This document shows, one piece after another, positions 9,327 through 52,601 of a DNA stretch of 64,000 nucleotides. The notes below the pieces were generated by a model that was not told where the DNA came from, made no database searches, and was given only the letters and a program-made list of their open reading frames with translations. This DNA is from Escherichia coli. Its GTDB lineage: Bacteria; Pseudomonadota; Gammaproteobacteria; Enterobacterales; Enterobacteriaceae. The DNA lies in assembly GCF_024223415.1 (NCBI RefSeq), contig NZ_CP100500.1. One strand, written 5' to 3'. A program made the translations under genes and the position numbers. The first letter of the stretch is position 1. Each line of letters opens with the position of its first letter.

Positions 9327-10175
9327 TCAGAGATCTTCGTCTTTCCGGAGACTTCGGATGAATTCAGCCGGAGTCATGTCATTTAATGATGAATGCGTCC
9401 TTTCATGATTGTATTCCCTGCGCCAGCTGTCGAGTTTGTCCTGCGCATCTTCCAGTGACAGGAACCAGTGAATGTTCAGACACTCATCCCGTAGACTGCC
9501 GTTAAATGATTCAATAAACGGGTTATCTGTCGGCTTCCCGGGGCGCGAGAAGTCCATGGTCACTCCGTGTTCATACGCCCATTTATCCAGACTTTTTGAG
9601 ATAAACTCGCTGCCGTTATCTGTCTGAATACGTACCGGCAGGCGCTTACCCGGCACCCGCAACCCTTCCATCACACCGACCACATCCTCGCCTTTCAGCG
9701 ACTTTCCGGCATGGATCGCCAGACACTCCCGACTAAAATTATCGACTACAGTCAGCGCCCGGAAACGCCGTCCGTTAAACAGATTATCCGACACGAAATC
9801 CATATTCCAGCACTGATCGACACCGGTCAGGATGGGACGCTGTTGGCGATGTGCTGCACTGACATGCCTGCACGGACGTTTTCTCCGCAGGTTAAGTCCT
9901 TCCAGACAATAAATCCGGTGTGTTTTCTTGTGGTTAACAGGCCAGCCTTCCTGCCGTAACTGGATATGAATACGCGGGCAACCGTAGCGGATCCGGGTTT
10001 CCGCTATCTCCCTGATGCGCAGGGTTATCGCCCGATCATCTCGCCGACTCTGCCAGTGGTAAACGGTTCTGCTCTGTATCAGCAGTCCACATCCCCGTCG
10101 GACACTGATACGGTAAGCTTCCCGCAGAAAATGTACCGCCTGACGCTTCTGAGCCGGCCTCAGAACTTTTGTTTC
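9327..10175 (-). CDS. IS3-family transposase OrfB (DDE), expressed by -1 frameshift from OrfA
   Basis: The frame is open without an ATG from the 'ACAAAAG' region at the orfA end. It reads '...RYGCPRIHIQLRQEGWPVNHKKTHRIY...MDFVSDNLFNGRRFRALTVVDNFSRE...DNGSEF'. Confidence 0.8.
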   Translation of the reverse strand, partial: ETKVLRPAQKRQAVHFLREAYRISVRRGCGLLIQSRTVYHWQSRRDDRAITLRIREIAETRIRYGCPRIHIQLRQEGWPVNHKKTHRIYCLEGLNLRRKRPCRHVSAAHRQQRPILTGVDQCWNMDFVSDNLFNGRRFRALTVVDNFSRECLAIHAGKSLKGEDVVGVMEGLRVPGKRLPVRIQTDNGSEFISKSLDKWAYEHGVTMDFSRPGKPTDNPFIESFNGSLRDECLNIHWFLSLEDAQDKLDSWRREYNHERTHSSLNDMTPAEFIRSLRKDEDL

Positions 10176-10426
10176 AGTACCTCCTGCAACATCTCCTTAT
10201 CCAGACTCAGATCAGCCACCAGTTTCTTCAGCCGCTGATTTTCATCCTCCAGTTGCCGCAGACGCCGCAGTTCCGTCACGCCCAGACCGGCAAATTTCTT
10301 CTTCCAGTTGTAAAAGGTGGCCTCAGAAATACCCATCTTTCTGCAGACTTCCCCGACGCGGGTGCCGGTTTCGGCCTGTTTCAGCGCAAACGCAATCTGT
10401 TCTTCGGTATAACGGGTCTTTTTCAT
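10160..10426 (-). CDS. IS3-family transposase OrfA (HTH)
   Basis: 'MKKTRYTEEQIAFALKQAETGTRVGEVCRKMGISEATFYNWKKKF' followed by a leucine zipper. Confidence 0.9.
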   Translation of the reverse strand: MKKTRYTEEQIAFALKQAETGTRVGEVCRKMGISEATFYNWKKKFAGLGVTELRRLRQLEDENQRLKKLVADLSLDKEMLQEVLKQKF

Positions 10427-10554: not shown

Positions 10555-12786
10555 CTAGTTCTCTACCATCAACCGGGCAAGCTTGGCAAAAATCGAACAC
10601 TTGCTGCTTTCACCGCTCCTGAGCATATCCAGGGTAAAGCTATTGAGATAAACGCCAGTTAACGGGTGGCTAAATACATCTACGGCTTTGCCTTGGGCAT
10701 CCCATATCAGCAGATTTTCCACCAGGTTAGGCCGTGCAATAGTAGGATTTGTAGGCTGGGCATCGCTTACCAGAACAAATACACCATTCTCATGCGGTTG
10801 CAGATAAATATGGTGATGCTTCATCTTTTGCGCTTTGGTCAGCGAGTCGTATTTCGAGCGGCCAGGTGATATCAGATAGGGCAGTACGTTTTGATCCGGT
10901 TTTGCAGAGCGGGTGATGGCGTACCCGTTAAATTTATCCCCTTTACGCTCTGCCAGAGTTTTTTCTTGTTCCTGATAAGCGTATGAATCGACGATATTAA
11001 ATTGCGCCGGGCCAATCAGGCGCGGTACGCGGGAGCTGTTGTAGGTGGTAAGCAGGACATCTGCTGTGTGGTCGTAGAGATAGAAGCTTTTGTCGAATAA
11101 TTTCTTTAATCGTCCCAGAGAGGGGGGATCAACAGACAGATAGTCTAATTTACCTTCAGCGATCCCGGTATCAACCACCCTAAGTTGGCCGTGTTCTATT
11201 TTTAGTTCGACATATCCAAGCAGGGGGAGATAGCTTTTCGTTTTGCGTACTGCATAGGCGGTATAGTGCCCGTCCGCCAAATCTGGTAGTGGGATGTGAT
11301 GCTGATTGAGTAAGCTCTCTTTGAACCATAGCTCGGTTTTTGTTCGGCGAACCTTACTGTTAAGTAAGGTAACTGCTGACTTGAGACGACTGTGAGGCTT
11401 CGTAAGATCGATTTCGTATTGAGTAGGGTTGCTTGTCAATTGTTCATTAATAAAATCAATCGCATCCAACAACTTGTGATCAATATTCATACCCTGTAAG
11501 ACTACGGGCAGAGGTTGCTGATTTAGCCACCCTTGCAAACGATCTAGTTTAAGCTGGGTATAAGTATCCCAATTGAGTTCGGGTTGTTTTCGGGCGTCGG
11601 CAAAGGCCGCATAGAAATCATTGTACTCAACAGATTCATTATCTTGCTGGCGGATGCTGTTGCTCCGCTCTTCATCTACTGCATTGAGTACCAGAATAGA
11701 TGTACTGGCAGGCAGCTCAGAAAAGCCGGTTTGCTGAGAATGTTTAAGCGACGCCAGAGGCCAGAGTTGATACCCGGGGAACTGGATGGCTAATGTGTCA
11801 AAGAAATAAGCTTCTTGCGTGGCGCTAAATTCGACGCCGTTATTAACCACCAACAGCGTATTAGTCAGTTGTTGATCGAGGTCGGTAGCGAACTGATTGA
11901 CCTCGTGGGTGGCCTGAAATGCGATAGGCTGATGCGGGATCTCTAGTTCACTGAGCCGCTCGCAGGCGGCATTCATGACCACGTTATAGGTATAGGCCTG
12001 GCATTCACCATAGCCGCTGCGCTCACGAAAAAAGTCCAGTTTGCTATCCCGGGCATCGAGTTTGCGCCGGGCTTTGAGCCGACGATTATCGATGTTAAAC
12101 CACACGCAGGTATCGTCCAGAGAGAGATGCAATTCATCCTCCGGTTCGACCAGAAATTTTCGTTTGTGCAGGGTAAAGGCGAGTTCGTTATATTCTGATG
12201 CATAAATGTCGAGTTCGAATGCCTCCATCACTCCAGTGCCGCTTTTCTGCGTGACGGGCTGACTCAGGCGAGCGTTGAGATAGAACGTAGAGTTGAAGTA
12301 GGTTGGCGGTACCGAAAAGCGCTCGCTGGCTTGTTCCAGCATTACCATTTTCAAATGCAGACTGAACAATCCCTGAATCAGGCGAGATAAATCATAATTT
12401 TCAGCTGTGAGTCGCTGGCAAAGCGTTTCAATGCGTTCTGCCAAAGTCCGATGCGCTAGGCTGTTCGGTGCAGCAGCAGGCGCCAGGAAAAAAAAGACGT
12501 GATGGTAATTGGGTAAGCAATGCAGCTCATATTTTACTTCCTGTCCGGCCTCAAGCCCAAGCTTCTGCCGCACGCAAGTTTTTACCTCCTGATGAATTCG
12601 CGCATAGTAATCAGCGGATTTTTCTTTTCGCTCTTTAGTAAAGTGCTGAACCATAAAGTCTATCGTATAGATATTAGATACCGGGGCCAATAGACGCTGG
12701 ATTGTTGTCAGCTGATCTTCTTCAAGCTTGATCAAATTGGTACGGGCAATCGGAGTATCCGTCAGCTCATTCAGATTAGGGATCAT
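10555..12786 (-). CDS. 743 aa protein of unknown function; last gene of the five-gene operon (possible Argonaute/PIWI-like partner, unproven)
   Basis: Long uninterrupted ORF. ATGA start/stop overlap with the upstream helicase-nuclease gene. I recognise no motif except a C-terminal 'SSKCSIFAKLARLMVEN' tail. Confidence 0.75.
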   Translation of the reverse strand: MIPNLNELTDTPIARTNLIKLEEDQLTTIQRLLAPVSNIYTIDFMVQHFTKERKEKSADYYARIHQEVKTCVRQKLGLEAGQEVKYELHCLPNYHHVFFFLAPAAAPNSLAHRTLAERIETLCQRLTAENYDLSRLIQGLFSLHLKMVMLEQASERFSVPPTYFNSTFYLNARLSQPVTQKSGTGVMEAFELDIYASEYNELAFTLHKRKFLVEPEDELHLSLDDTCVWFNIDNRRLKARRKLDARDSKLDFFRERSGYGECQAYTYNVVMNAACERLSELEIPHQPIAFQATHEVNQFATDLDQQLTNTLLVVNNGVEFSATQEAYFFDTLAIQFPGYQLWPLASLKHSQQTGFSELPASTSILVLNAVDEERSNSIRQQDNESVEYNDFYAAFADARKQPELNWDTYTQLKLDRLQGWLNQQPLPVVLQGMNIDHKLLDAIDFINEQLTSNPTQYEIDLTKPHSRLKSAVTLLNSKVRRTKTELWFKESLLNQHHIPLPDLADGHYTAYAVRKTKSYLPLLGYVELKIEHGQLRVVDTGIAEGKLDYLSVDPPSLGRLKKLFDKSFYLYDHTADVLLTTYNSSRVPRLIGPAQFNIVDSYAYQEQEKTLAERKGDKFNGYAITRSAKPDQNVLPYLISPGRSKYDSLTKAQKMKHHHIYLQPHENGVFVLVSDAQPTNPTIARPNLVENLLIWDAQGKAVDVFSHPLTGVYLNSFTLDMLRSGESSKCSIFAKLARLMVEN

Positions 12787-15700
12787 GATACTTTTCCTTT
12801 AGTCGGCAACTTTTCTACACCCAGCAGGGTTAGTAACATTGGGTTTATATCCAATGTCATGCGCAGTTTCGAGTTTTCCTGAGCGCGTCCGCTCTCTCGA
12901 TTTTTGGGCTGATAATACTGGTAGTCAGTTTGCAACAGGTTGAGGTAGTGGATCGTGTGATCCACATTATCCTGCCACATCAGATTATTAGGGTTCTGGC
13001 TGTAGGCGACGTTCAGATAGATAAATCGAATACGTTCATAACGGCCTGCCAGCGCCGTCTGGAGCTGTTTCTGCCCCTCAGTATCCGCCTTTTGGCTGGC
13101 GATATTACGGATCTGGCGAATCTTGTTGTCGCTTTTCTCAAGCGTTTCTTCTGCCCGCGTCAAATCGTCCAACTGTGTCGCCCAGCGCTTAACGTCGATG
13201 CAGAGCAGGTCGTCGCCCACTTCAATAAAGCGGTCAAAAAACTCATAGACCAGCGGTTCAAGGCGTTCAAACACCTGCTGGTCGGAGAGTGGGGTAACAC
13301 CATAACTTTTTAGCACTTTATCGAAGAGATATTCACCGACATTGCCTTTGAGCAACGGAACTAGCCTGGGGTTGGGTACCCATTTTTTGAATGCCTTTTC
13401 CTGGATGTTGTCACATTCACGAATCAACTCGCCGACCAGGTTGCCGGGGGTAAAATCGACATCGTTTCTATACTGCGGAAAGAGGGTGAGCTCTGGCCGG
13501 TACTCTCTTGCGCCGCCAGCGAAATCCGACAGGGCGGAATAATCTCTGTGGGCAAGTCCATCCGGGCCGCGTTTGTGGCAAAGTAAAATCGTTTGATTCC
13601 CTTGCTGACGATCGATAAACAGAGCGTCGTGAACAGATTGCATTTGTCGATTGGCGGTATACAAGGGATTAGCCTGGAGTTTTGCCAGCCAGCGCTGGGG
13701 ATCGGTAAAGGAGTCAGGATCGCGGAATAAATTACATATCTCGAGATAATCGAGATTGCCAGCGCGTACCTTATTAATCCAGTCGGTTTTAAGGACACGT
13801 TTGTGAATTTCATCGATGCGGCGACCATTCGCGACGATAGCTTGCTCAAACGTCAGTCGCTGTTCCGCATTATTGAATGACTGGCCCTGACTCAGCTTTT
13901 CGCACTCCTCCATGAGTCGGTGGTTAAGCAAAGACATACTTTCTGATACCACCTCGTTACCGCTATCTTCACTAAGAGCGGCGAACTGAAATGCAACATT
14001 ACGGAACACATCGCGGGGTAAAAAGATTTCTGTTTTCAATAGAGTGTCGCGACGCTCGACTCGCCCTACGGCCTGCACGACGACTTTGAATAAGCTCATA
14101 TCATGTTCGGCCATTAACAGGCGATAGTTTTCGCCGTGGGCGAAATTAACGTTGAAATCGGCCAGCTTGTGGACGGTAATATCGTCATCGGCGTAGTGTT
14201 TAAGCACGGTAACGTAGTTAGGTAATGTATTGAGGTTGCCGCTGTTGTCCTTTACTTCGCTGTAAAACGAGGAGTTGATGAGCACTAAGCGCTCAAAATC
14301 GACATCCAGACGTGGTGCATTGATATCATTAATATCGCCGTCATGGTATTTAACAAAGTAGTTGAGGCCGGTACCCGCACTTTTATAACTGCTCATAAAT
14401 ACCAGTACGGTATTGCTGTTCTGGAGATAGGTTTCTTGCCTGATATCTTCGACATTAGCCAGTGGTGAATCGAAAAAGACCAAATGGACGGTGTGACGCC
14501 CTTTGAATGGGGTAAAGGTCAGGATCTGGTCATGTTTCTTACCGTTATCCGTTTTTTCATCGCACCGGGAGTGCATACCGTACTGCTGACGCCAGGTTGT
14601 CTGGTGCGTGCGCCAGGCGCTGATAAAGGCCCGCTTAAACGTCCCTGAAAGTGACAGAATCAGGCTGTTTTTACCCTCCCAGGCGGCAAGCAGTAACGCT
14701 TCCAGTTCCCGCTGGCACTGACGCCGTTTATAGGTATTTTTCAGGTCGTATTCCAGCGGTTTCTTCAGCGCGTCGAAAAAGTTGTCATACGTCCTGCGAT
14801 AGATTTCACAATTTTGGTAGATATCGGTCAATTTTAACTGCTTATCATCGAACACCCTGAAGTCTACGTTGCGGATACTGGCCCTCAACCCGCGTAATGC
14901 CTTAAGCGTATCGATATCTGCCTTTTCGCGTTCAACGACCCGGTAGCCAAGGTCGCGGCTATAGTGCGCCAGGAAGTGACGATTGAAGTTACCGTTTTTG
15001 GTGTGGCTAAAACCGCTGGTGGCGCTAAGCCCAATTACTTTATTGTGCGTGCCGGTTAATAAACGCAGCAGCATGGCTTCAGGCAACTCTTGTACCAGAT
15101 CCATCTCGAACGCCAGAATAATTGTGCGCTCGGCTCCCCTGTTCACGTAATTGAGTTCAGCTATCGGCGTCATCGTGAATACGGTTTTGGGTTGCAGGTA
15201 AGTGTAGAAATGATCAATCAACAAGTTTTTATCGGTGGTGCGATCGAAGATATGTCGCACCACGCCGGCTACGTTATTGGCTGCGTCAACAAACTGGCCC
15301 AAAGGCGTATTCTGGCTGCTGGAGTTGTCCTGGCCACCATTCTTTACCCAGCGCTTAAAGTGCCGGTTGGTGATTTCAGAACAGGCGGCGAGGATGACGG
15401 AGACCAACTGGAACAGATCGTGCAGAGTGGGGTTGGTGTCATTGGCATCATTTTCGACTTCGTAATACAGTTCGGTGCGCGTTATGTCGCCTTCGCTGTT
15501 GCGCATGCGAATGCGTTTCAGCCCTTCTTCATTGACGTACATTTTGGGGTTAAAGCTGAATACGTTGCGGGTGATTGAGATGATGCGTTCGGCGGCGTCG
15601 CCGTTGACTTCAAATGCCCCTAACTGGTCACGAAACATCTCCAGGATCGATCCCAGCCTTGTACCGGGGGATAGTTCGCACTTTTCCGCCAGTAAATTGC

Positions 15701-17498
15701 GCAGAGTAGTGATGAATTTGACCATCTCTTGCTCAAAGGTCGTTTGCGCTTCTTTGGGCTTGTTTCGGCGTTCTAAGCTGAGTACCGCGTTGTGAATACG
15801 TCCTGCGACGGAAATAACGTGCGCCAGGTTATTTTCCTGTGTGATTAGCTTTACATGGCATGTTTCTTCAAGGCGAGTGTAGGCTTCATGTAGTTCATCA
15901 ATGATCACCGTAAAACGAATATTTTTCTGGCGAAAAGGACAATCTGGATTGCGTCTGAAGTGTTCGTCGCGAAGATAGGTAACCTGCCCGGTATGACCGG
16001 CTGCCGCAACGGTGCTAATCTGTGGATCTTTGGGAGTCAGCTTACCGCCAATCAGCAAGTCGAAACCTACGGACTCAAAACGCACACCTTCGCCTCGCTG
16101 ACGAGGCGCCAGTCGGTAAGTTGATGTGTCGAACTTATTCGTGGTCATTAATAGCACTGACGGGCGGTACTGGCAAACTTCGAAAGGCAATACCTGTTTG
16201 ATAAGCTCGAAATAGACTTCGTGTACGCTTATCTTAGGTTCAAGCTTTCCTGGTTTTCGTGCTGTCTCCGCGTTTTGCATTCGCTCTTGCCGCGCCTGGA
16301 GCCCGCGACGAATGTACTCTTTAATGGAAGCTTTTTCACTATCTGGTCCAAATAGTAATTTACAGGCTGACTCAATCGTATTGCGGATACTGTGACGGCA
16401 GTTTTTTAGCTGTTCTTCGAGAATTTCTCTTTCGTAGTTGGTATCCTGAGAACCGTATGTTGTCAGCTTTTTTAACTGCTCTTCACAGCGATCAATTTGT
16501 AAGACATGATAATTGAGCGAACGAATAGCGCCGCCGATATATTTGCTGCCTTTCGCCCCTTCGTACCACTGAATATAGCTGTCGCGGTTTTTCAGACCAG
16601 AGGCCCAGTCCATAAAGTCGAGGTCGGCAACATCCTTACGGGAGAGAACGCAAATGAACTCGCCGCTAGCGGCCAGAATTTTCTCTTTCTGACTGCTGTC
16701 CAGGTCGATTTGTGATTTTTGCGGTGACATGAATAGCAGGTTGGTAAAGCCACCTTCAGGAAACAGATCGTCTGACTTTTGGGTTTTGGCGAAGCGCTCC
16801 AGATATTCGACATACCCTTGGATCACGCCATAGCTTTTGCCGAACCCCGTGCCGTCGGAACTGAAGATGACCTCAGCGCCATCACGTTCATGCACGTGGT
16901 AAAGTTGAGAGACTTGGGCGCGACAGGCGTTAATCTCTTTAATCAGCGTTATGTCAGGAATTTGCCTAGAGATGAGATCTTGCAGATTATTATTGATATT
17001 TTTCTCTCCAACACGCTCACACTTGCGGTAACTATTGATGGTTATTTGGCCGCTGTCGATCAGAATCTTTTCCACCTGTATGGGGGCAAGATGCAAGGCT
17101 GTCGCGATTTCATTGATAGTATTGGACAGTGGTTCGTGTGGATTGCTAATCGTGAAGTGGTTTAGTGCTGCCGCAACGGTATCTGGATGCAATGCTTTTC
17201 TGAGGGTGGGAAAGGTGAGGCTGTAATCGTATAGCGCCAAATCATTGCTTATCAGGCAGCGAAACAGTTGTTTAGTGGGATCGCCACCAGGACGGCTGGC
17301 AAATCCCAAGATTTTTGCCTGTTCGAGGCGATAAAGCAATGCTGCGGCATCGCGGTCAGGTGAGTCAAATGCATCGTGGAGCTGCTGGCTAAATGGCATT
17401 GTGGCATTCAGCCGGTTATGGCTGACCAGCGCGGAAAAGAGCTGACGCACCAAGGTTAGCAGCTTACAATCTTCCTCTATAGTCCAGCTTTTTCTCAT
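12783..17498 (-). CDS. ~1571 aa SF2 DExH helicase fused to a C-terminal PD-(D/E)xK-like nuclease; family unassigned
   Basis: Motif I 'GTGFGKS' (nt 16833-16853). Motif II 'IIDELHE' (15888-15899). Motif III 'LSATSG' (15018-15026). Motif VI 'QAVGRVERR' (14049-14075). Nuclease-like 'GEYLFD...FFDRF...GDDLLCIDVKRW' (13188-13334). The ATG at 17498 is preceded by GGGGAAG, 11 nt after the sngC stop; the track start at 17534 is the alternative. Confidence 0.8.
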   Translation of the reverse strand: MRKSWTIEEDCKLLTLVRQLFSALVSHNRLNATMPFSQQLHDAFDSPDRDAAALLYRLEQAKILGFASRPGGDPTKQLFRCLISNDLALYDYSLTFPTLRKALHPDTVAAALNHFTISNPHEPLSNTINEIATALHLAPIQVEKILIDSGQITINSYRKCERVGEKNINNNLQDLISRQIPDITLIKEINACRAQVSQLYHVHERDGAEVIFSSDGTGFGKSYGVIQGYVEYLERFAKTQKSDDLFPEGGFTNLLFMSPQKSQIDLDSSQKEKILAASGEFICVLSRKDVADLDFMDWASGLKNRDSYIQWYEGAKGSKYIGGAIRSLNYHVLQIDRCEEQLKKLTTYGSQDTNYEREILEEQLKNCRHSIRNTIESACKLLFGPDSEKASIKEYIRRGLQARQERMQNAETARKPGKLEPKISVHEVYFELIKQVLPFEVCQYRPSVLLMTTNKFDTSTYRLAPRQRGEGVRFESVGFDLLIGGKLTPKDPQISTVAAAGHTGQVTYLRDEHFRRNPDCPFRQKNIRFTVIIDELHEAYTRLEETCHVKLITQENNLAHVISVAGRIHNAVLSLERRNKPKEAQTTFEQEMVKFITTLRNLLAEKCELSPGTRLGSILEMFRDQLGAFEVNGDAAERIISITRNVFSFNPKMYVNEEGLKRIRMRNSEGDITRTELYYEVENDANDTNPTLHDLFQLVSVILAACSEITNRHFKRWVKNGGQDNSSSQNTPLGQFVDAANNVAGVVRHIFDRTTDKNLLIDHFYTYLQPKTVFTMTPIAELNYVNRGAERTIILAFEMDLVQELPEAMLLRLLTGTHNKVIGLSATSGFSHTKNGNFNRHFLAHYSRDLGYRVVEREKADIDTLKALRGLRASIRNVDFRVFDDKQLKLTDIYQNCEIYRRTYDNFFDALKKPLEYDLKNTYKRRQCQRELEALLLAAWEGKNSLILSLSGTFKRAFISAWRTHQTTWRQQYGMHSRCDEKTDNGKKHDQILTFTPFKGRHTVHLVFFDSPLANVEDIRQETYLQNSNTVLVFMSSYKSAGTGLNYFVKYHDGDINDINAPRLDVDFERLVLINSSFYSEVKDNSGNLNTLPNYVTVLKHYADDDITVHKLADFNVNFAHGENYRLLMAEHDMSLFKVVVQAVGRVERRDTLLKTEIFLPRDVFRNVAFQFAALSEDSGNEVVSESMSLLNHRLMEECEKLSQGQSFNNAEQRLTFEQAIVANGRRIDEIHKRVLKTDWINKVRAGNLDYLEICNLFRDPDSFTDPQRWLAKLQANPLYTANRQMQSVHDALFIDRQQGNQTILLCHKRGPDGLAHRDYSALSDFAGGAREYRPELTLFPQYRNDVDFTPGNLVGELIRECDNIQEKAFKKWVPNPRLVPLLKGNVGEYLFDKVLKSYGVTPLSDQQVFERLEPLVYEFFDRFIEVGDDLLCIDVKRWATQLDDLTRAEETLEKSDNKIRQIRNIASQKADTEGQKQLQTALAGRYERIRFIYLNVAYSQNPNNLMWQDNVDHTIHYLNLLQTDYQYYQPKNRESGRAQENSKLRMTLDINPMLLTLLGVEKLPTKGKVS

Positions 17499-17509
17499 TC
17501 TTCTTCCCC

Positions 17510-19708
17510 TTAATATAAATGCCCCTGCAACCACTCCGTCACGCGTTCAATATTAAAAGCACGTAATCCATATTCCTGCGTCAGCAACGTCTCGGGTAAA
17601 TACTCATCATATTTTTCGAGGCACTTTTCAACGATGCTTTCGGCAAGACGGGATTCGTAAGGTAGCCCTTCCTGAAGTGCGCTGAATAACGCTTGTTTAA
17701 CCTCCGAGACCGTAGTTTTTTCTACTTCAACCACACCAGCAAATGAGCCCGCCTTGAAACCGCGTTGGATAAGTAATGCCGACAACGTGTTTACGGTTTG
17801 ATCGCCTAGCCAGGGAAGAATGTAGACATGCTGTCTCTGCTGAATAAAACATTCCGAAGCCAGATTATTGTTGCGAAAACAGTGCAGCCCTTCATCAAAC
17901 AGGTTTTTGGCCGTGGTATCGGCAAAATCGGCCTTGCGATTGCCAACGGTGATGCGGTAGTCGCCTTCCCGATAAATAGTGAGCATTTCTTGGCGGACGA
18001 CATCATGAATGGACATCCCTTGTCCGCCAAATAACGGCGGCTGCCCACCCTTTGTCGCCTCGACATAAATAACTTTTTTATCACTATCGATATCGGTTAC
18101 CTTCCAGCGTCGACCGCCGAAAATAATGTGTTGATCAGGCATCAGTGGGGAATCAACGGGAATGGAGCCCAGTGTTTTGCTCCCCGCCACAATGCGAAAC
18201 TCTTCCGGCGTGCTGAACACGGCGTAGAAGGTGTATTGATTTACCTGACGTTCGCCCTCGACGCCCAGAACCAGTTCGCCGCTTGAGAGCTGGGTCAGAA
18301 ACTGGTGCTCCCCCATATGTTTCAATAACGTTTTGAAGTCATAGATCCGGACTTTCTGAAATGGCCCTTGCAGGCATAGCTGTGACCAGATCTGATCCGC
18401 ACGCACGCCTCCCCACTGCGCCACGATCGCCAGGATCTGATGGAACAGGGTGGAATAGTGCATCTGCCGGGTATCAGCTGGCTCAAACCATTTGTTGCCG
18501 ATAAGTAAGCGGATCATGGCCAGCGACTGAACAAGCTGAAGCCTGAGCTGGTCGACAATGCCTGATGTTGGCGTCAGTTCATGTTCGGCAATCAGCATTC
18601 TCAATACGGCAGGCGAGTCGCGCCGACCGGAGCGTCCCATTCGCTGACGCAGGCTGGCTACGGAATGGGGGGCGGTAACTTGCACAACGGAGCTGACTTT
18701 ACCGATGTCGATGCCAAGCTCTAACGTCATCGTACAGATGGCGGTGGTGGGTAAGTTGCCTTGTTGAAGCCTCTGTTCCAGCGTTTCACGCAGATCTCTG
18801 GACAGAGATCCGTGATGGGGAAAGAACTCATTGGGAACGATGCTCGCTTCACTGAGATCGCTAAGCGTGGCGGCAATGCTTTCGGTCCGTTTGCGACTAT
18901 TAGCGAACACCAGATGGGAATCACCACGACAGAGGCGAAAGATATCATGGCAGATTTGCGTCTCTGCCGACGGTGGAGATTGCTGGCCCGAGGTGGTCAG
19001 CGGTTCCAGATAACCTTTCACCTGTACTTTTAGCGTGGCGTGAGTCTGACTGTCGGTAATAATGTCACAGGGCAGACGTTGATTTGGCCGCAGAGATAAC
19101 GGCACCTGTTCCAGTTCCCCCAGCGTTGCGCTGAGTGCGACTCGGGGGACTGGATTGTTGATTCTTCCCAGCAGGTGATCGACTCGATTTAACAGAGAGA
19201 GAAGCTGCATACCCCGCTCAGAACCGATGAAAGCATGGAATTCATCAATGGCGATATATGCCAGTGGCGCGAAAGCCTGCTTTAACCATCCCGCATTGCG
19301 GATCAGCATCGCTTCCAGCGATTCCGGGGTGATAAGCAAAATACCGGCAGGATTCTTCTTTGCTTTCAGCTTTTTGCTCTGCGCAACATCACCATGCCAG
19401 GGCGTGACCGGCATCTCCAACGCATCACCGAGGTTTTCCAGCCTTCGATACTGATCGTTAATCAGGGCCTTAAGCGGGCTGATGTATAAAATGCCAAAGC
19501 CGCCCTGAATATCCGCAATGGCAGAACAGGCGGGCAGGAAAAACGCTTCTGTTTTACCTGCGGCAGTCGCGGCGCTGATCAGAACATCCCGATCGCCCGC
19601 TAATATCGGTGAAACGGATTTTTTTTGCAGTTCCCTGAGATCGGCCCATCCCTGCCGGTATATCCACTTCTGTATCCGTGGATCCAGCCGCTGGTATTCG
19701 TTCATCAT
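17510..19708 (-). CDS. sngC: Lhr-like DEAD/DEAH helicase, Shango SngC-type
   Basis: Motif I 'TAAGKTEAF', motif II 'IDEFHAF', motif III 'LSATLG', motif VI 'QRMGRSGRR'. ATGA overlap with the upstream ATPase gene. Confidence 0.75.
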   Translation of the reverse strand: MMNEYQRLDPRIQKWIYRQGWADLRELQKKSVSPILAGDRDVLISAATAAGKTEAFFLPACSAIADIQGGFGILYISPLKALINDQYRRLENLGDALEMPVTPWHGDVAQSKKLKAKKNPAGILLITPESLEAMLIRNAGWLKQAFAPLAYIAIDEFHAFIGSERGMQLLSLLNRVDHLLGRINNPVPRVALSATLGELEQVPLSLRPNQRLPCDIITDSQTHATLKVQVKGYLEPLTTSGQQSPPSAETQICHDIFRLCRGDSHLVFANSRKRTESIAATLSDLSEASIVPNEFFPHHGSLSRDLRETLEQRLQQGNLPTTAICTMTLELGIDIGKVSSVVQVTAPHSVASLRQRMGRSGRRDSPAVLRMLIAEHELTPTSGIVDQLRLQLVQSLAMIRLLIGNKWFEPADTRQMHYSTLFHQILAIVAQWGGVRADQIWSQLCLQGPFQKVRIYDFKTLLKHMGEHQFLTQLSSGELVLGVEGERQVNQYTFYAVFSTPEEFRIVAGSKTLGSIPVDSPLMPDQHIIFGGRRWKVTDIDSDKKVIYVEATKGGQPPLFGGQGMSIHDVVRQEMLTIYREGDYRITVGNRKADFADTTAKNLFDEGLHCFRNNNLASECFIQQRQHVYILPWLGDQTVNTLSALLIQRGFKAGSFAGVVEVEKTTVSEVKQALFSALQEGLPYESRLAESIVEKCLEKYDEYLPETLLTQEYGLRAFNIERVTEWLQGHLY

Positions 19709-21024: not shown

Positions 21025-23352
21025 TTATCCTTTGAGTTCTTGTGCAATTTCCAGGTCAACGTAAATATCATCGTCATCATCAAGCACCGGGGCGTCAACC
21101 TGTTCGAAAGACCAGTCATTAATTGCTTCAATCGCGCCGCTTAGCATCAAATTAAACTGCTGGCATAGCTCAGCGACTTCGTTTCGCGCCCAGCGTTCTT
21201 TTTCCTGCAAACGTTGGTAAAGTTGATGATGTGCTTCATCAAGACCTGCGCCAGCGTGTGGCGGGATCTCCGCTGGGGATTCGTCTGCGGGTTCATCTTC
21301 GGTGAAGATGGTGTTCAGTAACTGGCGTACGTCCGTTGTGTCGGATTCATGACGGGCAAGGATCCGTTCATCAAGAGAAAACGCGCCGCTCGTCGCTGAT
21401 GGGGTTTGTAACGTAGCTGTCGGAGTTGTTTCTGCGGTTGACAGTCGGTGGATATCGCTGGTAACGGCACTGCTGTCCAGACCGAGGCTGGCGTAGATTT
21501 TTTCCAGTTGTTTGATTTCAGCCGGATCGATTTTTCCATCTGCGCAGGCGACGCTGATAATCACGTTGCCAATAGTGGATTTATCTTTATCGCTGAGTTG
21601 CTCAATTTTACCTTTCAGACCAGCCTGATTTGCAGGCGTATTGAGCCGCCAGGTGAGGTAGGCGTGCAGCGAACGTTTTTCTGTTGGCGACAGCGCATCG
21701 TTATGATTAATCGTTTTCTCCAGCGCGGCCTGTTCAGCAACATCCACGCGCTTGTCCATTTGTGCAATCATGGCACCCAACCGAAGCGCCACAGAGACTG
21801 ACGTAAATTCCGCCGACGGTACGTAGAATTCCGCATGCCCTTCAGGAAATAAAACAAGATGACCTTCTGGATCCGGTCTGACAAGGTGATAGCGCATATC
21901 CGGCGCAATGCCGTAGCCTGCTCGCCGGGCGAAATTTTGCATCAGCTCGGCTTCTTTCTTATTAATCTTATCCGGTACAGGCATACCCAGTCTGGCCCAG
22001 AAATCAGCCACTGTCGCCAGTCCTGAATGTTCACGGATTTTCTCATCTGCCCAGTGTTTAAATTCAGCAAATAGACGTTCTGCATCTTCGGTCAGTATTT
22101 CATCGGGAAGCAGCATGATGGCGGCGACATCACTTGGTGAGGCATCTTTTTTACCGAGATAGCGACTGTAGGCATCCAGCGCGTTGATACAGGATTCTGC
22201 AACAGAAATTAATTTCTGAACTGGGGCTTTTAAAACGCTGGGATCGGGAAGATCCATCTGTTTTTTTACCTGAAGTTCCCGAAGCGTACCACTGGCGGGG
22301 GTATAGCTTAAATACAACCGTGTTTTATTGGGTTTGACGACAATACCGTCACCGTATTTTTGAGTATAACGCTGTTTGAATAATGCGGAAAATTCAGCAT
22401 GACATCGACGGGCAGGCGTGCGCAGGGTGTAATCAGGAAAATAGTATATCCATGCCAGTGCCAGAGCGGCACAAATAGGTTGTCCTTTATCGACCACAGT
22501 CGCTAGATTTAATCTGAACAGTAATGAACTCCTCGATGAGAAATATTCGTTTTCGGTATATATAGAAAGCAACTTCGGTCGGAGAACGATCATCATTTCC
22601 AGCAACTGCGTTGCATAATGCCGGAAGGAACCGCTTGCCTGAAATACGGTTCTCAGGCGCGATATCTCTTCGAATAATGCTTTGAATTCATCGTCAGAAA
22701 TGGCTTCTTGTGTGCCATCGGCCAGTACGCGGCGTTCTAGACCGTAAAAATAGATAAAAACATAGCCAACGGGGCAGCTCGCATCGCTGCGATCGCTTGC
22801 CAGCCAGTCAAGATAGGCGCCACGGCAGCGAGGGGAGAGTGTGGCAAAGCTGGGCCAGTATCCCAGTGACTCATCATAATAATGCCGTGAACCAGGCTCG
22901 ATGGGAAAAGCGTCATTAACCAGCGAAGCGTCGGAGTCATCGTTATAAAGATATCCATATTCTCCTGATGAATGTGTTTTTAACCGCCCGCCGAAATAAA
23001 AATAACCGTGATTAATGACGACATTTTGAATGGTGATGCTTTCTCCCGGTTTGACCCATCGCGCTGGAGTGGTATTGCTACGGGCGGCGTTTTCTCGTGA
23101 CGGCTGGCGGCTGGTGCTGTATTCAACCGTCTGCCCGTTCACAAAAGTAAAGGTTGCCAGTTCGTCATCATCGGAGGCCTGAGAATGCATATTTGTCATG
23201 CTGTTATCTGGCTTATTGAGAGATTTCTGTCGAGATGAATGATTTATTTTGGTGATGATTTTGTTGTTTACTCTGGGGGGCGGCGATTTTTTCTTTTTGG
23301 AAAACAGAAGCCAGATAACCGCCAGCATAATAACAAATATCCAGAAGCCCAT
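21025..23352 (-). CDS. sngA: TerB-N / TerB / TerB-C domain membrane protein, Shango SngA-type
   Basis: N-terminal TM 'FWIFVIMLAVIWLLF'. TerB-like '...VACADGKIDPAEIKQLEKIYASLGLD'. TerB-C-like 'FSLDERILARHESDTTDVRQLLNTIF'. Confidence 0.75.
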   Translation of the reverse strand: MGFWIFVIMLAVIWLLFSKKKKSPPPRVNNKIITKINHSSRQKSLNKPDNSMTNMHSQASDDDELATFTFVNGQTVEYSTSRQPSRENAARSNTTPARWVKPGESITIQNVVINHGYFYFGGRLKTHSSGEYGYLYNDDSDASLVNDAFPIEPGSRHYYDESLGYWPSFATLSPRCRGAYLDWLASDRSDASCPVGYVFIYFYGLERRVLADGTQEAISDDEFKALFEEISRLRTVFQASGSFRHYATQLLEMMIVLRPKLLSIYTENEYFSSRSSLLFRLNLATVVDKGQPICAALALAWIYYFPDYTLRTPARRCHAEFSALFKQRYTQKYGDGIVVKPNKTRLYLSYTPASGTLRELQVKKQMDLPDPSVLKAPVQKLISVAESCINALDAYSRYLGKKDASPSDVAAIMLLPDEILTEDAERLFAEFKHWADEKIREHSGLATVADFWARLGMPVPDKINKKEAELMQNFARRAGYGIAPDMRYHLVRPDPEGHLVLFPEGHAEFYVPSAEFTSVSVALRLGAMIAQMDKRVDVAEQAALEKTINHNDALSPTEKRSLHAYLTWRLNTPANQAGLKGKIEQLSDKDKSTIGNVIISVACADGKIDPAEIKQLEKIYASLGLDSSAVTSDIHRLSTAETTPTATLQTPSATSGAFSLDERILARHESDTTDVRQLLNTIFTEDEPADESPAEIPPHAGAGLDEAHHQLYQRLQEKERWARNEVAELCQQFNLMLSGAIEAINDWSFEQVDAPVLDDDDDIYVDLEIAQELKG

Positions 23353-23535: not shown

Positions 23536-24603
23536 TTATACCTCTGAATCACGCATAAAACGATTGATTTCATCTTGCGCATGACGAAGACGATCGGCAA
23601 TGTCAGCAAATCTGTCAGGCTGATGAAAGAACATTCCCCCTTCCACCGCCGTTTGATGATCCCCGGCGATCGCTGCGAACCGTTCAGCATCGTCAGGCAA
23701 CAGTTGCAGGTTTCCGACAATCACCTGAGTAAAATCCACACCCGGCACAGACCAGCGACGTTGCTTCATCTCGACCACATTGCGCATGGCTTCCAGCGTT
23801 TCATAGGGGCTGGCAAAATGATTACTCAGCAGACAATCCACATCATACCAATGGCGTGCCAGTCGGGCCGGATTTGGCGCTTTGGTTTGCGTGCAGAACT
23901 GGTGCAGCGCCGTCAGCTTTTCCCAAAGAATATAACCGGTGTCATAAGCGTTTACGGTCGCGGTGGGTAACTGGAGTGTATCCATGCCTGCGATCCCGGA
24001 CAGATAGCTTACAACAGGCATCAGATCGGTTGGCTTGCCACGATTTCGTCCGCCAAATTCCAGCAGAATATGATCGCGCTGATAGGCCATACTGTCTTCT
24101 TTCACCCGTGGGAAATAGATATCGACTTTTTCGCCACCACTGTCGGGTTCCATTTTTGCTTCAAGGCCCGGAATTTCATAAGTCTGAAAGCGTTGGTTTA
24201 ACCGTTCTGCCAGCGCGTTTGTCCATTCTGTTAAGCGCTCTTGCTGCTGCTCTCTGAACCGGCGATTCTGGCTGTTATTTAGCGTGCTTTGCTCCCATGC
24301 CTGCTGTTCTTCCTCTTCTGAGTGGCCTGCCAGATCGGCCCAGTGAACAGAAAGATCGATATCTTCAGAAAAACGCTCAATCACGTTCCAGCATTTGCTT
24401 AACGCCGTTCCACCTTTAAACGCGACAGATAAACCTCCCAGCAGCTCCTCATTAAAAAGTAACCGAAGGATCTCCGTTACCCAGAGATCCTTTTCCAGAA
24501 AGCTGGCTCCCAGCCCGGAGGGATGCTGCTGCGCCGCGTAAGAGAGGATTTCCTGAAGCTCGCGACGTTGTGATGCGCTCCGGTAGTAATCAAAAATGTC
24601 CAT
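23536..24603 (-). CDS. abiEii: AbiEii/AbiGii-family nucleotidyltransferase toxin
   Basis: NTase signature 'FKGGTALSKC...ERFSEDIDLS'. The start 'MDIFDYY' overlaps the AbiEi stop (TGATG). Confidence 0.85.
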   Translation of the reverse strand: MDIFDYYRSASQRRELQEILSYAAQQHPSGLGASFLEKDLWVTEILRLLFNEELLGGLSVAFKGGTALSKCWNVIERFSEDIDLSVHWADLAGHSEEEEQQAWEQSTLNNSQNRRFREQQQERLTEWTNALAERLNQRFQTYEIPGLEAKMEPDSGGEKVDIYFPRVKEDSMAYQRDHILLEFGGRNRGKPTDLMPVVSYLSGIAGMDTLQLPTATVNAYDTGYILWEKLTALHQFCTQTKAPNPARLARHWYDVDCLLSNHFASPYETLEAMRNVVEMKQRRWSVPGVDFTQVIVGNLQLLPDDAERFAAIAGDHQTAVEGGMFFHQPDRFADIADRLRHAQDEINRFMRDSEV

Positions 24604-25220
24604 CAGAGCGCCTTTTGCAACGTTATCAGCTGCGAGCGCCACGCGTGAAGCGCAGGCTCATTCATCAACTTTCCGGCAATCTGCCGTGCTTTAGCGGACG
24701 GGATGCTCAGCCGATGAAAAGCATTCTTCAGCGTTTCCAATGGGGTATGTTGCTGATCCAGACTCAGCAAACCGCGCATCAGCTCTCCTTCAGGCCGGTT
24801 CAGCCAACGTAACCGACTTGCTGATTTATGCTGGATCCGTACCCGCTCATTGCCGACGCGGAATTCTCGCGTAGGGCCGTTTGACCAGTAGATGCGTTTA
24901 ACTGGCGCCTGCGTTTGCAGCCCCAGCCGGTAAGCGGCTTCCAGCCCCTGAAGGGTGATTTTGTAACCACGCTCTTTTGCCCATGCGGCGGCAACGGCAT
25001 TGGCGCTGGCAACAACGTTAACAGAGGGGATGTTTTTCAACGGCTTTGGCCGGGAGTAGAAACCGCGTTCAACCCGGACCAGCAGGCCTTCTTTGACCAG
25101 ACGGCTCATTGCCTGTTGTACCGACGCACGGCTTCCCAGCGAGTAAAACCCGCTGATGGAAAAGGGGATGCCACGCTTCATGCGGTGAACCCGCTGGCGG
25201 GCCAGAGCGGCAACAGACAT
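24603..25220 (-). CDS. abiEi: AbiEi-family antitoxin/transcriptional regulator
   Basis: 'MSVAALARQRVHRMKRGIPFSISGFYSLGSRASVQQAMSRLVKEGLLVRVERGFY' (wHTH). AGGAG lies 6 nt upstream of the ATG at 25220. Confidence 0.8.
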   Translation of the reverse strand: MSVAALARQRVHRMKRGIPFSISGFYSLGSRASVQQAMSRLVKEGLLVRVERGFYSRPKPLKNIPSVNVVASANAVAAAWAKERGYKITLQGLEAAYRLGLQTQAPVKRIYWSNGPTREFRVGNERVRIQHKSASRLRWLNRPEGELMRGLLSLDQQHTPLETLKNAFHRLSIPSAKARQIAGKLMNEPALHAWRSQLITLQKAL

Positions 25221-25418
25221 TGATTCTCCTGTACTGACGTTTTCATTGATATGTATTTTCATTATATCCCTTGTGTAGCAAGGAGTCTAACCTAAAAAAT
25301 GTCAGTAATATTCATTCTATGACAATGTTTAAAATGGCAGATATCAGTGAGGTAGCTTGCTGTAGGAAATTCCGACGATAAAATACCCACATACAGCAGG
25401 CGGTGATAAGGATATAGC

Positions 25419-27614
25419 ATGAGCATTCTCTCCATCCACGGCGTTCGCAGTTATCAGGGCGAAAGGCCAGTGGAGTTCGACTTGAGTAAGTATGTCACTC
25501 TTATCTATGGACAAAACGGCTCAGGAAAATCAACCGTTTCTGGTTACTTTTATAAGCATGGTCGTCCAGATTACAGCCAGTGCAGCCTGCGACCTCCACT
25601 GGATATGAACTACCTGGTGTTTAATCAGGAGTATGTAGACGATATTTTCAGCCAACCTTCTCAGCCGGGCATTTTCACTTTAAATAGTGAAAATGCAGAA
25701 ATTAAAACTGAAATAGATGCTCTGGAAGCGGAGAGTAAAGTTTTGTTTGCCCGGCGTGATGCTTTGGACGTGCAAAAACGCGACGTTGAGGGCATGGAAG
25801 AAAGTATTAAAAATGGCTCCGCAAAACAGATTTATAGTTCTACCGCAGAAATCAGAAAAACAGATTTATGGGATTTGATGTCTGGAACTAAACAGACCGA
25901 CAAACTTTTTCAGACCATCCTTGAACACACTGAAGTCGAAGATACTTCGACGCAGGAATTAACCGAAGAACTACACCGACTTGAAGCCAGTAAAGGCAAC
26001 CCTTACGCTTTGCTCGAAGCATTGCCAGCATCCCCTTTGAATGACAATGATATTGCGCTATTGATGCAACCTCTTATTCCAGCAGGTGATAGCCGTCTTG
26101 CTGCCGCAATTAACCAATTGGGCAACATTGACTGGGTGAGGAATGGACAGCAGTGGCTGAGTGATGACATTTGCCCATTTTGTCAAACGCCGATAGATGC
26201 CCGGCAACTTCAACAGGAAATCACTGCCCTTTTTGATACCTCATGGGAAGCTGCGATGGACCAGTTGCGGGAACTTCAGGCGCGATATCAATTCTGGCAC
26301 GATAAACCCGAACATATGCGGCAGTTAATAAAAACGTGTCCGTTAGTTGATCAGGAACATCCTGTTTATCTCTATCTACTTGAACTGGAGCAGGCGTATC
26401 AAAGAAATAAATTGCATATCGATGAGAAATTGACATCACCCTCTGCGTCGATTGCTGTTGAGGATCTTTCTGCTCTGGCTGGCAATGTCTCTGTGCAGAT
26501 AGCCAGTATTAATACAATAATAAGCGAACATAACCGAAAGGCTGAAAATTATCAGACTGAACGGGTTAGACTGAAACAGAGACTACTCAGTCATATCCGA
26601 AAACTGGCTACCGATACGATAATTAACCATGATGAACAACTAGCAGAACTTGCTGAAAAATTGGCAAAATTAACGGTGTCTCGGGATGAAATTACGGCCC
26701 AGCTTGATACGCTGAACGCAATTATTCGCGGTAAATCCAGCCTGATCGTCAATACGCAGGAAACGATTGAACGTATTAATCACAGCTTGGATAGCCTTGG
26801 AATCACTGGATTCCGCATTGCTCCCTATGACGATCGGGATGATTATCGTCTGGTGAGGGAAGGTGAGAACAGCGATACGCCTGTTTTTAGTAGTCTGAGT
26901 GAAGGGGAAAAGACGCTGATTGCTTTTCTCTATTTTCTGGAGACTTGCACAGGGAGAAAAAGTCGTGATGACAATGACCAACGAAAACGTTTAATTGTCA
27001 TTGATGATCCTATATCCAGCCTGTCGCAAAACTATGTTTTTGAAATAGCATCGTTGATCCAGCATCAGGTTATACGTGCCAGAATTGGTGAGAAAGTGAT
27101 TATTCTGACGCACAGCCTGTTTTTCTTTCAGGAGTTACTGCTTTCTGCGGAACGGAAGAAAAGGGCAGCGGGTTCTTGCCCACCAGAATGGACGCTTTAT
27201 CGGGTATCCAAATCCTTACATAGTTCTGCTTCCCTTGTTTCCGAAAAAGAATTACTGAACGACTATCAGGCACTCTGGTATGTCTTACGCCACGCCCAAA
27301 AAGATGACATTGCCAGTGTGGTGATCCCAAATACGATGCGGCAAATCCTTGAATACTATTTTGGTTTTTCGGGGAAAAGTGAGACGCTTCACCGGGCGCT
27401 TGAAACACTGGCGAGCGGGCCTGAAGGTGAACCTGGTTTCCGTATATTTGCTCGTTATCTAAATCGACATTCTCACCAGGATGCCCGCAATATCTCTCTT
27501 CATGAGGGGGCTTCGGTTGAACGCTATCTTACCTGGTTTAAGAAAGTATTCGAGGCGGCAAAGGATGAAGAGCATTACACATCAATGATGGAAAAGACGA
27601 CACAAACGACCTGA
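25419..27614 (+). CDS. rloC: RloC-like ATPase / putative anticodon nuclease (AAA_13 type with zinc hook)
   Basis: Walker A 'GQNGSGKST'. Coiled-coil insert with 'CPFC' (nt 26172-26183). Walker B 'LIVIDDPISSL'. C-terminal 'FARYLNRHSHQDARN'. Confidence 0.7.
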   Translation: MSILSIHGVRSYQGERPVEFDLSKYVTLIYGQNGSGKSTVSGYFYKHGRPDYSQCSLRPPLDMNYLVFNQEYVDDIFSQPSQPGIFTLNSENAEIKTEIDALEAESKVLFARRDALDVQKRDVEGMEESIKNGSAKQIYSSTAEIRKTDLWDLMSGTKQTDKLFQTILEHTEVEDTSTQELTEELHRLEASKGNPYALLEALPASPLNDNDIALLMQPLIPAGDSRLAAAINQLGNIDWVRNGQQWLSDDICPFCQTPIDARQLQQEITALFDTSWEAAMDQLRELQARYQFWHDKPEHMRQLIKTCPLVDQEHPVYLYLLELEQAYQRNKLHIDEKLTSPSASIAVEDLSALAGNVSVQIASINTIISEHNRKAENYQTERVRLKQRLLSHIRKLATDTIINHDEQLAELAEKLAKLTVSRDEITAQLDTLNAIIRGKSSLIVNTQETIERINHSLDSLGITGFRIAPYDDRDDYRLVREGENSDTPVFSSLSEGEKTLIAFLYFLETCTGRKSRDDNDQRKRLIVIDDPISSLSQNYVFEIASLIQHQVIRARIGEKVIILTHSLFFFQELLLSAERKKRAAGSCPPEWTLYRVSKSLHSSASLVSEKELLNDYQALWYVLRHAQKDDIASVVIPNTMRQILEYYFGFSGKSETLHRALETLASGPEGEPGFRIFARYLNRHSHQDARNISLHEGASVERYLTWFKKVFEAAKDEEHYTSMMEKTTQTT

Positions 27615-40981: not shown

Positions 40982-41713
40982 ATGAATCAACCAATACACA
41001 ATGCTTACTGGTTATCCCGTTTTGACAGCCTTCTCGACAGTGCCCTGTCGCAGCACCGTGCCGTCTCGTTAATCCGGGTGGATTTACGTTTCCCTGAGTA
41101 TATGCCTGTCACCATCATGGATCCCGATCCGGATTCAGCGGTGATTTCTCGTTTTTTCGAATCCCTGAAAGCCAAAATCCAGGCTTACCAGCGGAAAAAA
41201 CGACGTGCCAACAAGCGTGTGCGTGCAACCACTCTGCGTTATTTCTGGTGTCGGGAGTTTGGCAAGGAAAAAGGCAGGAAACATTATCACGTGATATTGC
41301 TGCTCAACAAAGATACCTGGTGCTCGCCAGGGGATTTCAGCGAACCATCTTCGCTGGCGACGATGATCCTGGAGGCATGGTGCAGCGCCCTGCATCTTGA
41401 GGCCTGGCAAGGCGATGGCCTGGTCCATTTTTCCAGGTGGACGCCTTCCCGTAAACCAGCATCGTCTGATGCTCGCCCTTCTTCCGATGACACGCCTTTG
41501 TCGGGTGGATGTTCTGATACCAGGAAGGCTTCAGAAAAAAAGCCGGGTGAAGCCGCTGTTCTCTGGATCAAGCGTGGTGATGTGGAAGCGCTGCAGAAAG
41601 CCCGGAACAGAGCCAGTTATCTCGTGAAATATGAGACGAAGCAGCATGACGGTTCCGGGCAACGTAATTATGGTTGCAGTCGTGGGCCGGGGCGTCTGCT
41701 GGATGGCAGGTGA
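40982..41713 (+). CDS. Inovirus-Gp2-family protein (YagK/YfjJ-type)
   Basis: '...LIRVDLRFP...LRYFWCREFGKEKGRKHYHVILLLNKDTW...'. Confidence 0.7.
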   Translation: MNQPIHNAYWLSRFDSLLDSALSQHRAVSLIRVDLRFPEYMPVTIMDPDPDSAVISRFFESLKAKIQAYQRKKRRANKRVRATTLRYFWCREFGKEKGRKHYHVILLLNKDTWCSPGDFSEPSSLATMILEAWCSALHLEAWQGDGLVHFSRWTPSRKPASSDARPSSDDTPLSGGCSDTRKASEKKPGEAAVLWIKRGDVEALQKARNRASYLVKYETKQHDGSGQRNYGCSRGPGRLLDGR

Positions 41714-50138: not shown

Positions 50139-50244
50139 TTCATGGAGTTTGTTTACCATTCTGTTTTTCTTAAAAGTGAGTGTCTGTGCGGTCACTAAAC
50201 TCGGTAATAAAGCAGTTCATTGCAGGATAAGAAGCGTTTGGTTG

Positions 50245-50513: not shown

Positions 50514-50593
50514 AAGGGAGATGAAAAAGGCAATAGCAGAACTGAGTGACAGTGAAACCATTCTGGCGTACAGGGTTGGATGGTGAAACTGAT

Positions 50594-51365: not shown

Positions 51366-52601
<1,236 letters not shown>

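Follow-up and report, generated by a model that had tools for sequence, protein, structure and literature searches.

In Escherichia coli ST38, the loss of plasmids and the capture of blaOXA-48 by the chromosome are driven by the antiplasmid system ApsAB (Zongo et al., Nat Commun 2024; PMC11096173), a role already in the literature. According to that paper, ApsA carries the helicase motifs 218-GFGKS-222, 532-DELH-535, 823-SAT-825 and 1140-QAVGRVER-1147 and the nuclease motif D1420 ... D1433-V-K1435, and ApsB is a 743-amino-acid (aa) Argonaute-like protein with the MID-like residues Y409, K413, Q431 and K489 and the C-terminal residue N743. Both apsA and apsB are required for plasmid destabilisation, which is abolished by the ApsA substitutions K221A and E533A and partially impaired by the ApsA nuclease substitution K1435A, and activity is abolished by the ApsB MID-like lysine substitution K413A. 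Induction of ApsAB clears a ColE1 plasmid within hours, the apsAB operon expressed alone in MG1655 eliminates plasmids, and pSC101 and IncF plasmids are spared. Activity is also seen with variants that share 92/92% and 28/25% identity with ST38 ApsA/ApsB, and antiphage activity was not seen against eight phages. Islands bearing apsAB can also contain the SngABC genes of Shango and AbiE. Here, a 64,000-nucleotide (nt) stretch of an E. coli chromosome (NCBI RefSeq assembly GCF_024223415.1, contig NZ_CP100500.1; hereafter the window) was analysed, and its gene at 12783..17498 on the minus strand is, judged by its sequence, an allele of the published and experimentally characterised apsA.

The second system of reference is DdmD, which acts with the Argonaute DdmE. 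The DdmD papers report that two domains, INS and Arch, are inserted in its RecA-like domain 1 (HD1) and resemble the iron-sulfur (FeS) and arch domains of XPD-type helicases, that INS carries no FeS cluster, and that INS and Arch form an autoinhibitory dimer interface around the DNA channel. Movement in the 5'->3' direction was demonstrated biochemically after loading by DdmE, whose docking site is a helical bundle in another part of the DdmD helicase domain.

The window gene and its partner were found at the following positions.
12783..17498, minus strand: apsA allele encoding a helicase-nuclease of 1571 aa (RefSeq WP_001232428.1, 'hypothetical protein')
10555..12786, minus strand: apsB, encoding the Argonaute-like partner of 743 aa; its start and the apsA stop share 4 nt

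The correspondence to ApsA was drawn through the motif coordinates of a protein cluster, P0004 (1569 aa, 1171 member sequences), and not through the deposited ST38 sequence. In P0004, GFGKS lies at 218, DELH at 532, SAT at 823, QAVGRVER at 1140 and DVK at 1433, exactly the coordinates printed for ApsA. Aligned along its full length (1571 columns), the window protein has 94.3% identity with P0004, with a net difference of two residues, and the window ApsB has Y409, K413, Q431-G432, K489 and the C-terminal N743, the published ApsB signature. Taken together, these correspondences identify the window gene as an apsA allele with its apsB partner. Moreover, the Shango genes SngABC and AbiE near the window apsAB match the published island context. 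No match to the 1571-aa or the 743-aa protein was found in Pfam, PADLOC or NCBIfam scans, no useful match was obtained for three ApsA sub-regions in Pfam at E<=10, and a literature search found no paper mentioning the four WP accession numbers. The best explanation, in which we have high confidence, is that the gene is an apsA allele encoding the effector of ApsAB, a helicase-nuclease of the XPD/DinG/DdmD type whose mechanism would follow that of DdmDE by analogy.

The open frame spans 12783..17534 on the minus strand, and the RefSeq start is the ATG at 17498, with AAGGGG 7-8 nt 5' of it. An earlier sequence-only reading of the window, made without database searches, counted from an upstream in-frame GTG, so that its residue numbers equal the ATG numbering used here plus 12. 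The conserved elements of the helicase core and the nuclease are as follows.
16833..16853, minus strand: motif I (Walker A) GTGFGKS, residues 216-222, family-invariant, between strand 208-212 and helix 219-239
15888..15899, minus strand: motif II (Walker B) DELH, residues 534-537, with D534, E535 and H537 invariant, at the end of strand 528-534
15018..15026, minus strand: motif III SAT, residues 825-827, invariant, just after strand 820-824
14004..15017, minus strand: RecA-like domain 2, approximately residues 828-1165, with invariant residues and a fold match to DdmD, DinG and XPD
14361-14381, minus strand: motif V SAGTGLN, residues 1040-1046, within RecA-like domain 2
14049-14075, minus strand: motif VI QAVGRVERR, residues 1142-1150, at the end of helix 1122-1146, within RecA-like domain 2
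13119..13388, minus strand: PD-(D/E)xK nuclease core, approximately residues 1371-1460, with G1388-E1389, D1422 and D1435-V-K1437 and invariant residues

The catalytic block of the nuclease occupies coordinates 13188-13235. In an alignment of 33 ApsA family sequences with identities down to 21%, the invariant residues include D215, G216, T217, G218, G220 and K221 in the motif I region, D534, E535, H537, S825, A826 and T827 in motifs II and III, A1041, G1042, G1044, L1045 and N1046 in motif V, Q1142, A1143, G1145, R1146, E1148 and R1149 in motif VI, and E1389, D1422, D1435 and K1437 in the nuclease. The motif residues are invariant across the family and are therefore not chance matches. The window open reading frame encodes an SF2 helicase core that carries a PD-(D/E)xK nuclease at its C-terminal end. 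Every string listed in the sequence-only reading is present at its positions minus 12, and its helicase and nuclease assignments proved correct, in the alignment and, for helicase motifs I, II, III and VI, also in the structure model described below.

An AlphaFold2 (AF2) model of ApsA residues 1-1200 was built on the family alignment, with a mean pLDDT of 84 and a pTM of 0.77. In a Foldseek search of this model against the PDB, the top 16 matches are all cryo-EM chains of DdmD (E 6.5e-17 to 3.7e-12), followed by DinG (6fws, 1.7e-8) and XPD/Rad3 (8rev, 9pd3 and 7o4i, ~2e-7), the rest being above 0.05. The model has the XPD/DinG layout, with two RecA-like domains and insertions in HD1 at the FeS position and at the Arch position, and motifs II and III each lie at the canonical SF2 site, where the sequence-only reading had placed them. 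The order of domains in ApsA is RecA-like domain 1 with INS and Arch, RecA-like domain 2, a linker and the C-terminal PD-(D/E)xK nuclease. The absence of any Pfam, NCBIfam, PADLOC or PDB sequence match, the family profile included, might be taken to mean that the motif strings are chance occurrences in a protein that is no helicase, or that ApsA represents a novel SF2 class with unprecedented insertions. This is scarcely credible and is refuted by the family-wide invariance of the motifs, their canonical structural positions and the match of the model to DdmD, DinG and XPD; moreover, DdmD has motif I-II and II-III intervals of the same kind, and the motif I and motif II substitutions of the published protein abolish function.

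The relationship with DdmD was also detected at the level of sequence profiles, through intermediate relatives. A profile of the helicase core (residues 200-1200, 8 sequences) searched against 1.84 billion representative sequences retrieved 148 clusters at E<=1e-3, and so small a number indicates that the ApsA family is small. The single distant relatives P0202, P0230 and P0191 gave no match in the PDB. A pooled profile of 19 distant relatives matches DdmD of Lactobacillus casei (E 1.8e-12) and Vibrio cholerae (E 7.4e-11), and its alignment to the DdmD chains is collinear through motifs I/II, III and V/VI and the nuclease block. A related profile aligns ApsA motifs V and VI with 'SAYQTIGIGQNL' and 'QALGRMNR' of DdmD, the motif III block PE..LL.LL...N.V.GLSAT is common to the two proteins, and the ApsA nuclease block matches the DdmD nuclease block GxxGE ... 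YELFDF ... IDxKNW. In hhalign, the ApsA family aligns with the set of distant relatives with a probability of 100% and an E value of 8e-79; the alignment has 1191 columns and extends from ApsA residue 207 to 1552. At the profile level, hhalign and the pooled profile thus confirm the claim of an ApsA-DdmD relationship made from PSI-BLAST by Zongo et al. Since the direct PDB search was negative and the pooled profile was positive, ApsA is placed as a distant sister clade and not as a DdmD orthologue. A helicase of the Dnd/Ssp, DISARM, Druantia or Dpd systems was considered as another identity and ruled out, as no profile match was found.

The sequence-only reading had called the core atypical, on the grounds of intervals of about 310 aa between motifs I and II and about 285 aa between motifs II and III. 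The measured intervals, 318 and 291 aa respectively, bear out these estimates, and each accommodates a domain whose boundaries are approximate.
16170..16598, minus strand: INS domain, approximately residues 301-443, a long insert of helices within RecA-like domain 1, at the FeS position of XPD/DinG
15084..15833, minus strand: Arch-type domain, approximately residues 556-805, mixed alpha/beta, between motifs II and III

In the AF2 model, INS comprises the helices 304-315, 322-348, 352-381 and 392-413, and the Arch-type domain contains a long hairpin at 771-802. On the basis of the model, the two gaps are assigned to INS and Arch as in the XPD/DinG/DdmD class. The landmarks of L. casei DdmD are K33, D261-E262 and S523-A-T, with a motif I-II interval of ~228 aa and a II-III interval of 262 aa; the same motif landmarks and insertions thus occur in DdmD, and the spacing in ApsA is a signature of the class rather than an anomaly. 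The label 'atypical' accordingly does not hold, the layout being standard for XPD/DinG/DdmD helicases according to both Foldseek and the DdmD papers.

The two insertions differ in their conservation, which the sequence-only reading had proposed to examine. In the 33-sequence alignment, Arch is the best-conserved region of ApsA, with 86-90% identity at an overall identity of 71-79% (71-78% in HD2), and it has a constant length (240-250 aa) in 33/33 members; close members without exception have 290-291 aa between motifs II and III. INS varies more than any other region, in sequence as well as in length (120-156 aa). No invariant cysteine was found in the same alignment, the motif I-II interval included, and hence no 4Fe-4S signature; C283, C338, C379, C442 and C520 are conserved in the close clade only, in 67-82% of sequences. 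An XPD-like repair helicase with an FeS cluster was ruled out by this absence of invariant cysteines. By analogy with DdmD, INS and Arch would line the DNA channel and act in the autoinhibition of ApsA. The proposal that the insertions are accessory domains therefore stands, and its generic assignment to sensing or partner docking does not, the DdmD equivalents being a dimer interface and DNA channel.

The remaining part of the protein lies before the helicase core.
16884..17498, minus strand: N-terminal extension (residues 1-205), in which two modules of helix-turn-helix type precede a connecting helix

In hhalign, ApsA residue 207 is paired with a position near residue 22 of the DdmD-linked profile, so that the homology with DdmD starts just before motif I and the N-terminal extension lies outside it. 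The extension is the only undescribed part of ApsA. Modelled alone with AF2 (210 residues), the N-terminus has a pLDDT of 85.6 and folds into two modules, residues 7-81 and 105-162, each with three helices and then two short strands, and the helices 172-200 lead into HD1. The sequence-only reading had noted a long N-terminal region beginning SWTIEEDCKLL (residues 4-14 in the ATG numbering) and likened it to a SANT/Myb motif. The long region was found, at about 205 aa, and the likeness to SANT/Myb is neither established nor excluded: residues 1-205, compared with Pfam at E<=10, matched no Myb/SANT family and DUF5904 alone (E 0.21), and Foldseek of the N-terminus gave no match below E 0.019, the matches being weak and generic. 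The top Foldseek matches are mostly winged-helix domains (cullin WHB, RPC62, BusR, SlyA, SelB WH2-4 and ESCRT-II), and c-Myb is a weak match at rank 30. By eye, the series W5-x2-EED-x2-L ... R49-x7-R57 recalls the Myb/SANT pattern. Judging from the model, the extension is an accessory region of helix-turn-helix type that probably binds nucleic acids; it may bind DNA or have a regulatory role, and its first module is possibly SANT/Myb.

The distribution of the extension in the family is uneven. W5 and L146 are invariant wherever the region occurs, and the 205 residues are poorly conserved, among the least conserved regions in the 33-sequence alignment. P0049, P0050 and P0051 lack the region or have a short one, two Pseudomonas proteins retain only ~30 aa of it and a third 88 aa, and the residues preceding motif I number at least 149 in 30/41 strong full-length relatives and fewer in 11/41. 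A tentative proposal, to which we give limited credence, is that this region, found in about three quarters of ApsA-like proteins, constitutes an undescribed regulatory or DNA-recognition module with a first part that may be Myb/SANT-like. If true, the activation or target-selection step of ApsA would differ from the dimer autoinhibition and handover of DdmD.

A more far-reaching version would make ApsA itself the sensor, with the N-terminal modules, possibly together with INS and Arch, directly recognising plasmid DNA or a plasmid protein and with ApsB as an adaptor or regulator instead of an Argonaute that carries a guide. The confident folding of the N-terminus into two modules of nucleic-acid-binding type, with matches to DNA-binding domains, is in line with such a role, as are the lack of canonical PIWI and PAZ domains in ApsB and the sparing of pSC101 and IncF plasmids, a sign of some selectivity, both according to PMC11096173. 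We nevertheless regard it as improbable, since ApsA-like proteins of Pseudomonas and the 11/41 full-length relatives lack the N-terminal region, which is among the least conserved parts of the protein, the ApsB MID-like lysine is essential in the published system, and the homologous DdmDE targets through its Argonaute according to the DdmD papers.

The pairing of ApsA with ApsB is itself conserved. A partner of ~680-755 aa lies 3' of apsA in eight other loci, and in the relatives the two genes usually overlap by 4 nt or lie a short distance apart. Homology to ApsB extends along the whole of the Pseudomonas partner (E 1e-47), and the most distant partner is homologous over the C-terminal part only (E 1e-4). 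Within E. coli, apsA and apsB are present together in 148/5426 complete genomes. In the window, the pair is preceded by a complete Shango system.
21025-23352, minus strand: SngA of Shango, TerB_N/TerB/TerB_C, 775 aa
19705-21021, minus strand: SngB of Shango, BrxD-like ATPase, 438 aa
17510-19708, minus strand: SngC of Shango, DEAD/DEAH helicase, 732 aa

Shango lies directly upstream of apsA, and sngA-sngB-sngC-apsA-apsB are five genes on the same strand, the sngC stop lying 11 nt before the apsA ATG. This arrangement suggests that apsA and apsB might form the downstream end of a Shango operon of five genes and act with Shango instead of independently, a reading to which a frameshifted sngC relic of ~170 nt before the apsAB of E. 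coli KE50 lends some weight as a hint of ancestral linkage. It is highly improbable, however: apsA-apsB occurs without Shango in the eight other loci, comprising Pseudomonas, a metagenome contig, Vibrio, Oceanisphaera, Photorhabdus, Xenorhabdus and, on another E. coli island, strain KE50; the sngC-apsA junction of the window type is found in only 21 E. coli genomes, against the 148/5426 with apsAB; and apsAB alone eliminated plasmids in MG1655 in the published work. That apsAB is part of Shango was ruled out on the grounds that the pair occurs alone. A promoter and terminator scan of 9.8-24 kb returned sites no more frequently than shuffled controls and says nothing on the transcription units.

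In E. coli KE50 (locus L007, 9996-10170, near nanCMS), the stand-alone apsAB keeps ~170 nt of the sngC 3' end. Compared with window positions 17499-17680, the relic has a 1-nt deletion causing a frameshift, and it includes the sngC stop and the apsA ribosome-binding site. The relic suggests that the apsAB cassette once sat behind Shango; it may represent an ancestral Shango-apsAB linkage or contain the promoter region of apsAB, and a weaker possibility is that it dates from an ancestral state in which Shango and ApsAB were functionally coupled. In Vibrio toranzoniae (locus L008, 7984-8907), a BrxR-type WYL regulator (WHD_BrxR/WYL/BrxR_CTD) lies divergently and directly upstream of apsA-apsB, suggesting BrxR-like control of ApsAB in some hosts.

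The identity of ApsA, its fold class, its conserved motifs and the conserved apsA-apsB pair are established by the present analysis. On the analogy of DdmDE, ApsB would bind a short guide with a 5' phosphate in its MID-like pocket and recognise plasmid DNA, then recruit or load ApsA onto the displaced strand, and ApsA would move 5'->3' with ATP while its nuclease degrades the plasmid; guide use by ApsB, the loading step and the 5'->3' polarity of ApsA are all presumed from that analogy. Several points weigh against taking ApsA as an effector that works in the manner of DdmD. The global TM-scores of the ApsA model to DdmD are low (0.35-0.39), so that domain orientations and details may differ, and about 205 N-terminal residues of ApsA are missing from DdmD. 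Searches of the PDB with phmmer and with the family profile in hmmsearch found no helicase, the sole match being a spurious coiled coil (E 1.6). The published activity is that of the ST38 allele and of the 92/92% and 28/25% variants, and the published nuclease mutant kept partial activity. The literature searched contained no structure or biochemistry of ApsA or ApsAB. Finally, ApsB is described in the paper as lacking typical PIWI and PAZ domains, with no sequence similarity to DdmE and a different model, and the DdmDE handover mechanism may therefore not transfer to ApsAB.

The apsAB genes of the window reside in a chromosomal island adjacent to the gsp operon for type II secretion. A tRNA scan of the window found no tRNA gene, and the integration site of the island is therefore not in the window. 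An IS3-family transposase with a programmed frameshift (9327-10426, annotated in the identical record NZ_CP084096.1) sits between the gsp operon and apsB, marking the island boundary, and an IS3 element interrupts the apsAB region in genome H10. On the other side of Shango lie AbiEi (DUF6088/AbiEi_4, 219 aa) and AbiEii (nucleotidyltransferase toxin, 368 aa) at 23536-25262 on the minus strand, and a 731-aa AAA_13 ATPase at 25419-27614 on the plus strand, which matches the PADLOC candidate PDC-S06 (E 3e-242), shows a weaker likeness to PrrC and LmuB, and is a single-gene candidate defence protein of the same island. The segment 38001-40000 has a GC content of 35%, versus ~50%, and contains an open reading frame at 38175-39323 (plus strand, 382 aa) with no Pfam match at E<=1e-5; near this patch, at 40982-41713, is a YagK/YfjJ-type gene, typical cargo of CP4-like islands. 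At 50001-54000, the GC skew is strongly positive (0.16-0.24) over ~4 kb, including an open reading frame with a YadA-type anchor at 51312-52601, which probably marks a repetitive trimeric autotransporter adhesin gene.

In summary, the ApsAB family is a sparse yet widespread group of Argonaute-linked helicase-nucleases. The present analysis adds to the published description by explicitly assigning the 'excess' sequence of ApsA to INS and Arch domains like those of XPD/DinG/DdmD helicases, by identifying Arch as the most conserved and INS as the least conserved of its regions, by independently confirming the homology between ApsA and DdmD through structure and transitive profiles, and by describing an uncharacterised N-terminal helix-turn-helix extension. 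In the available passages of Zongo et al., a 'central helicase domain' and a nuclease are described, with no mention there of INS, Arch or the N-terminal extension. As far as those passages and P0004 allow the comparison, ST38 ApsA and the window protein share the protein family, the motif set, the 743-aa partner and the Shango/AbiE type of island, whereas the window allele has 1571 instead of 1569 aa, with its motifs shifted by +2 after residue 222, and its island adjoins the gsp operon instead of lying at tRNA-Leu.

Among proteins of known structure, DdmD (Vibrio cholerae and Lactobacillus casei; PDB 9ezx, 8u0u, 9bf1, 9khv and 9ixm) is the best structural match to ApsA. Both proteins have the same order of HD1 with INS and Arch, HD2 and PD-(D/E)xK nuclease, both are antiplasmid and paired with an Argonaute-like partner, and the FeS cluster signature missing in ApsA is matched by the lack of a cluster in DdmD. 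The two differ in that no direct sequence similarity is detectable, ApsA is ~380 aa longer, its I-II and II-III intervals measure 318 and 291 aa against ~228 and 262 aa in DdmD, and ApsB is, according to the paper, unrelated to DdmE in sequence and model. With XPD/Rad3/DinG, which are SF2 5'->3' DNA helicases, ApsA shares the helicase fold and the two insertion positions in HD1, but it differs from them in its fused nuclease, its extra N-terminal region and its location in a defence island rather than a repair context.

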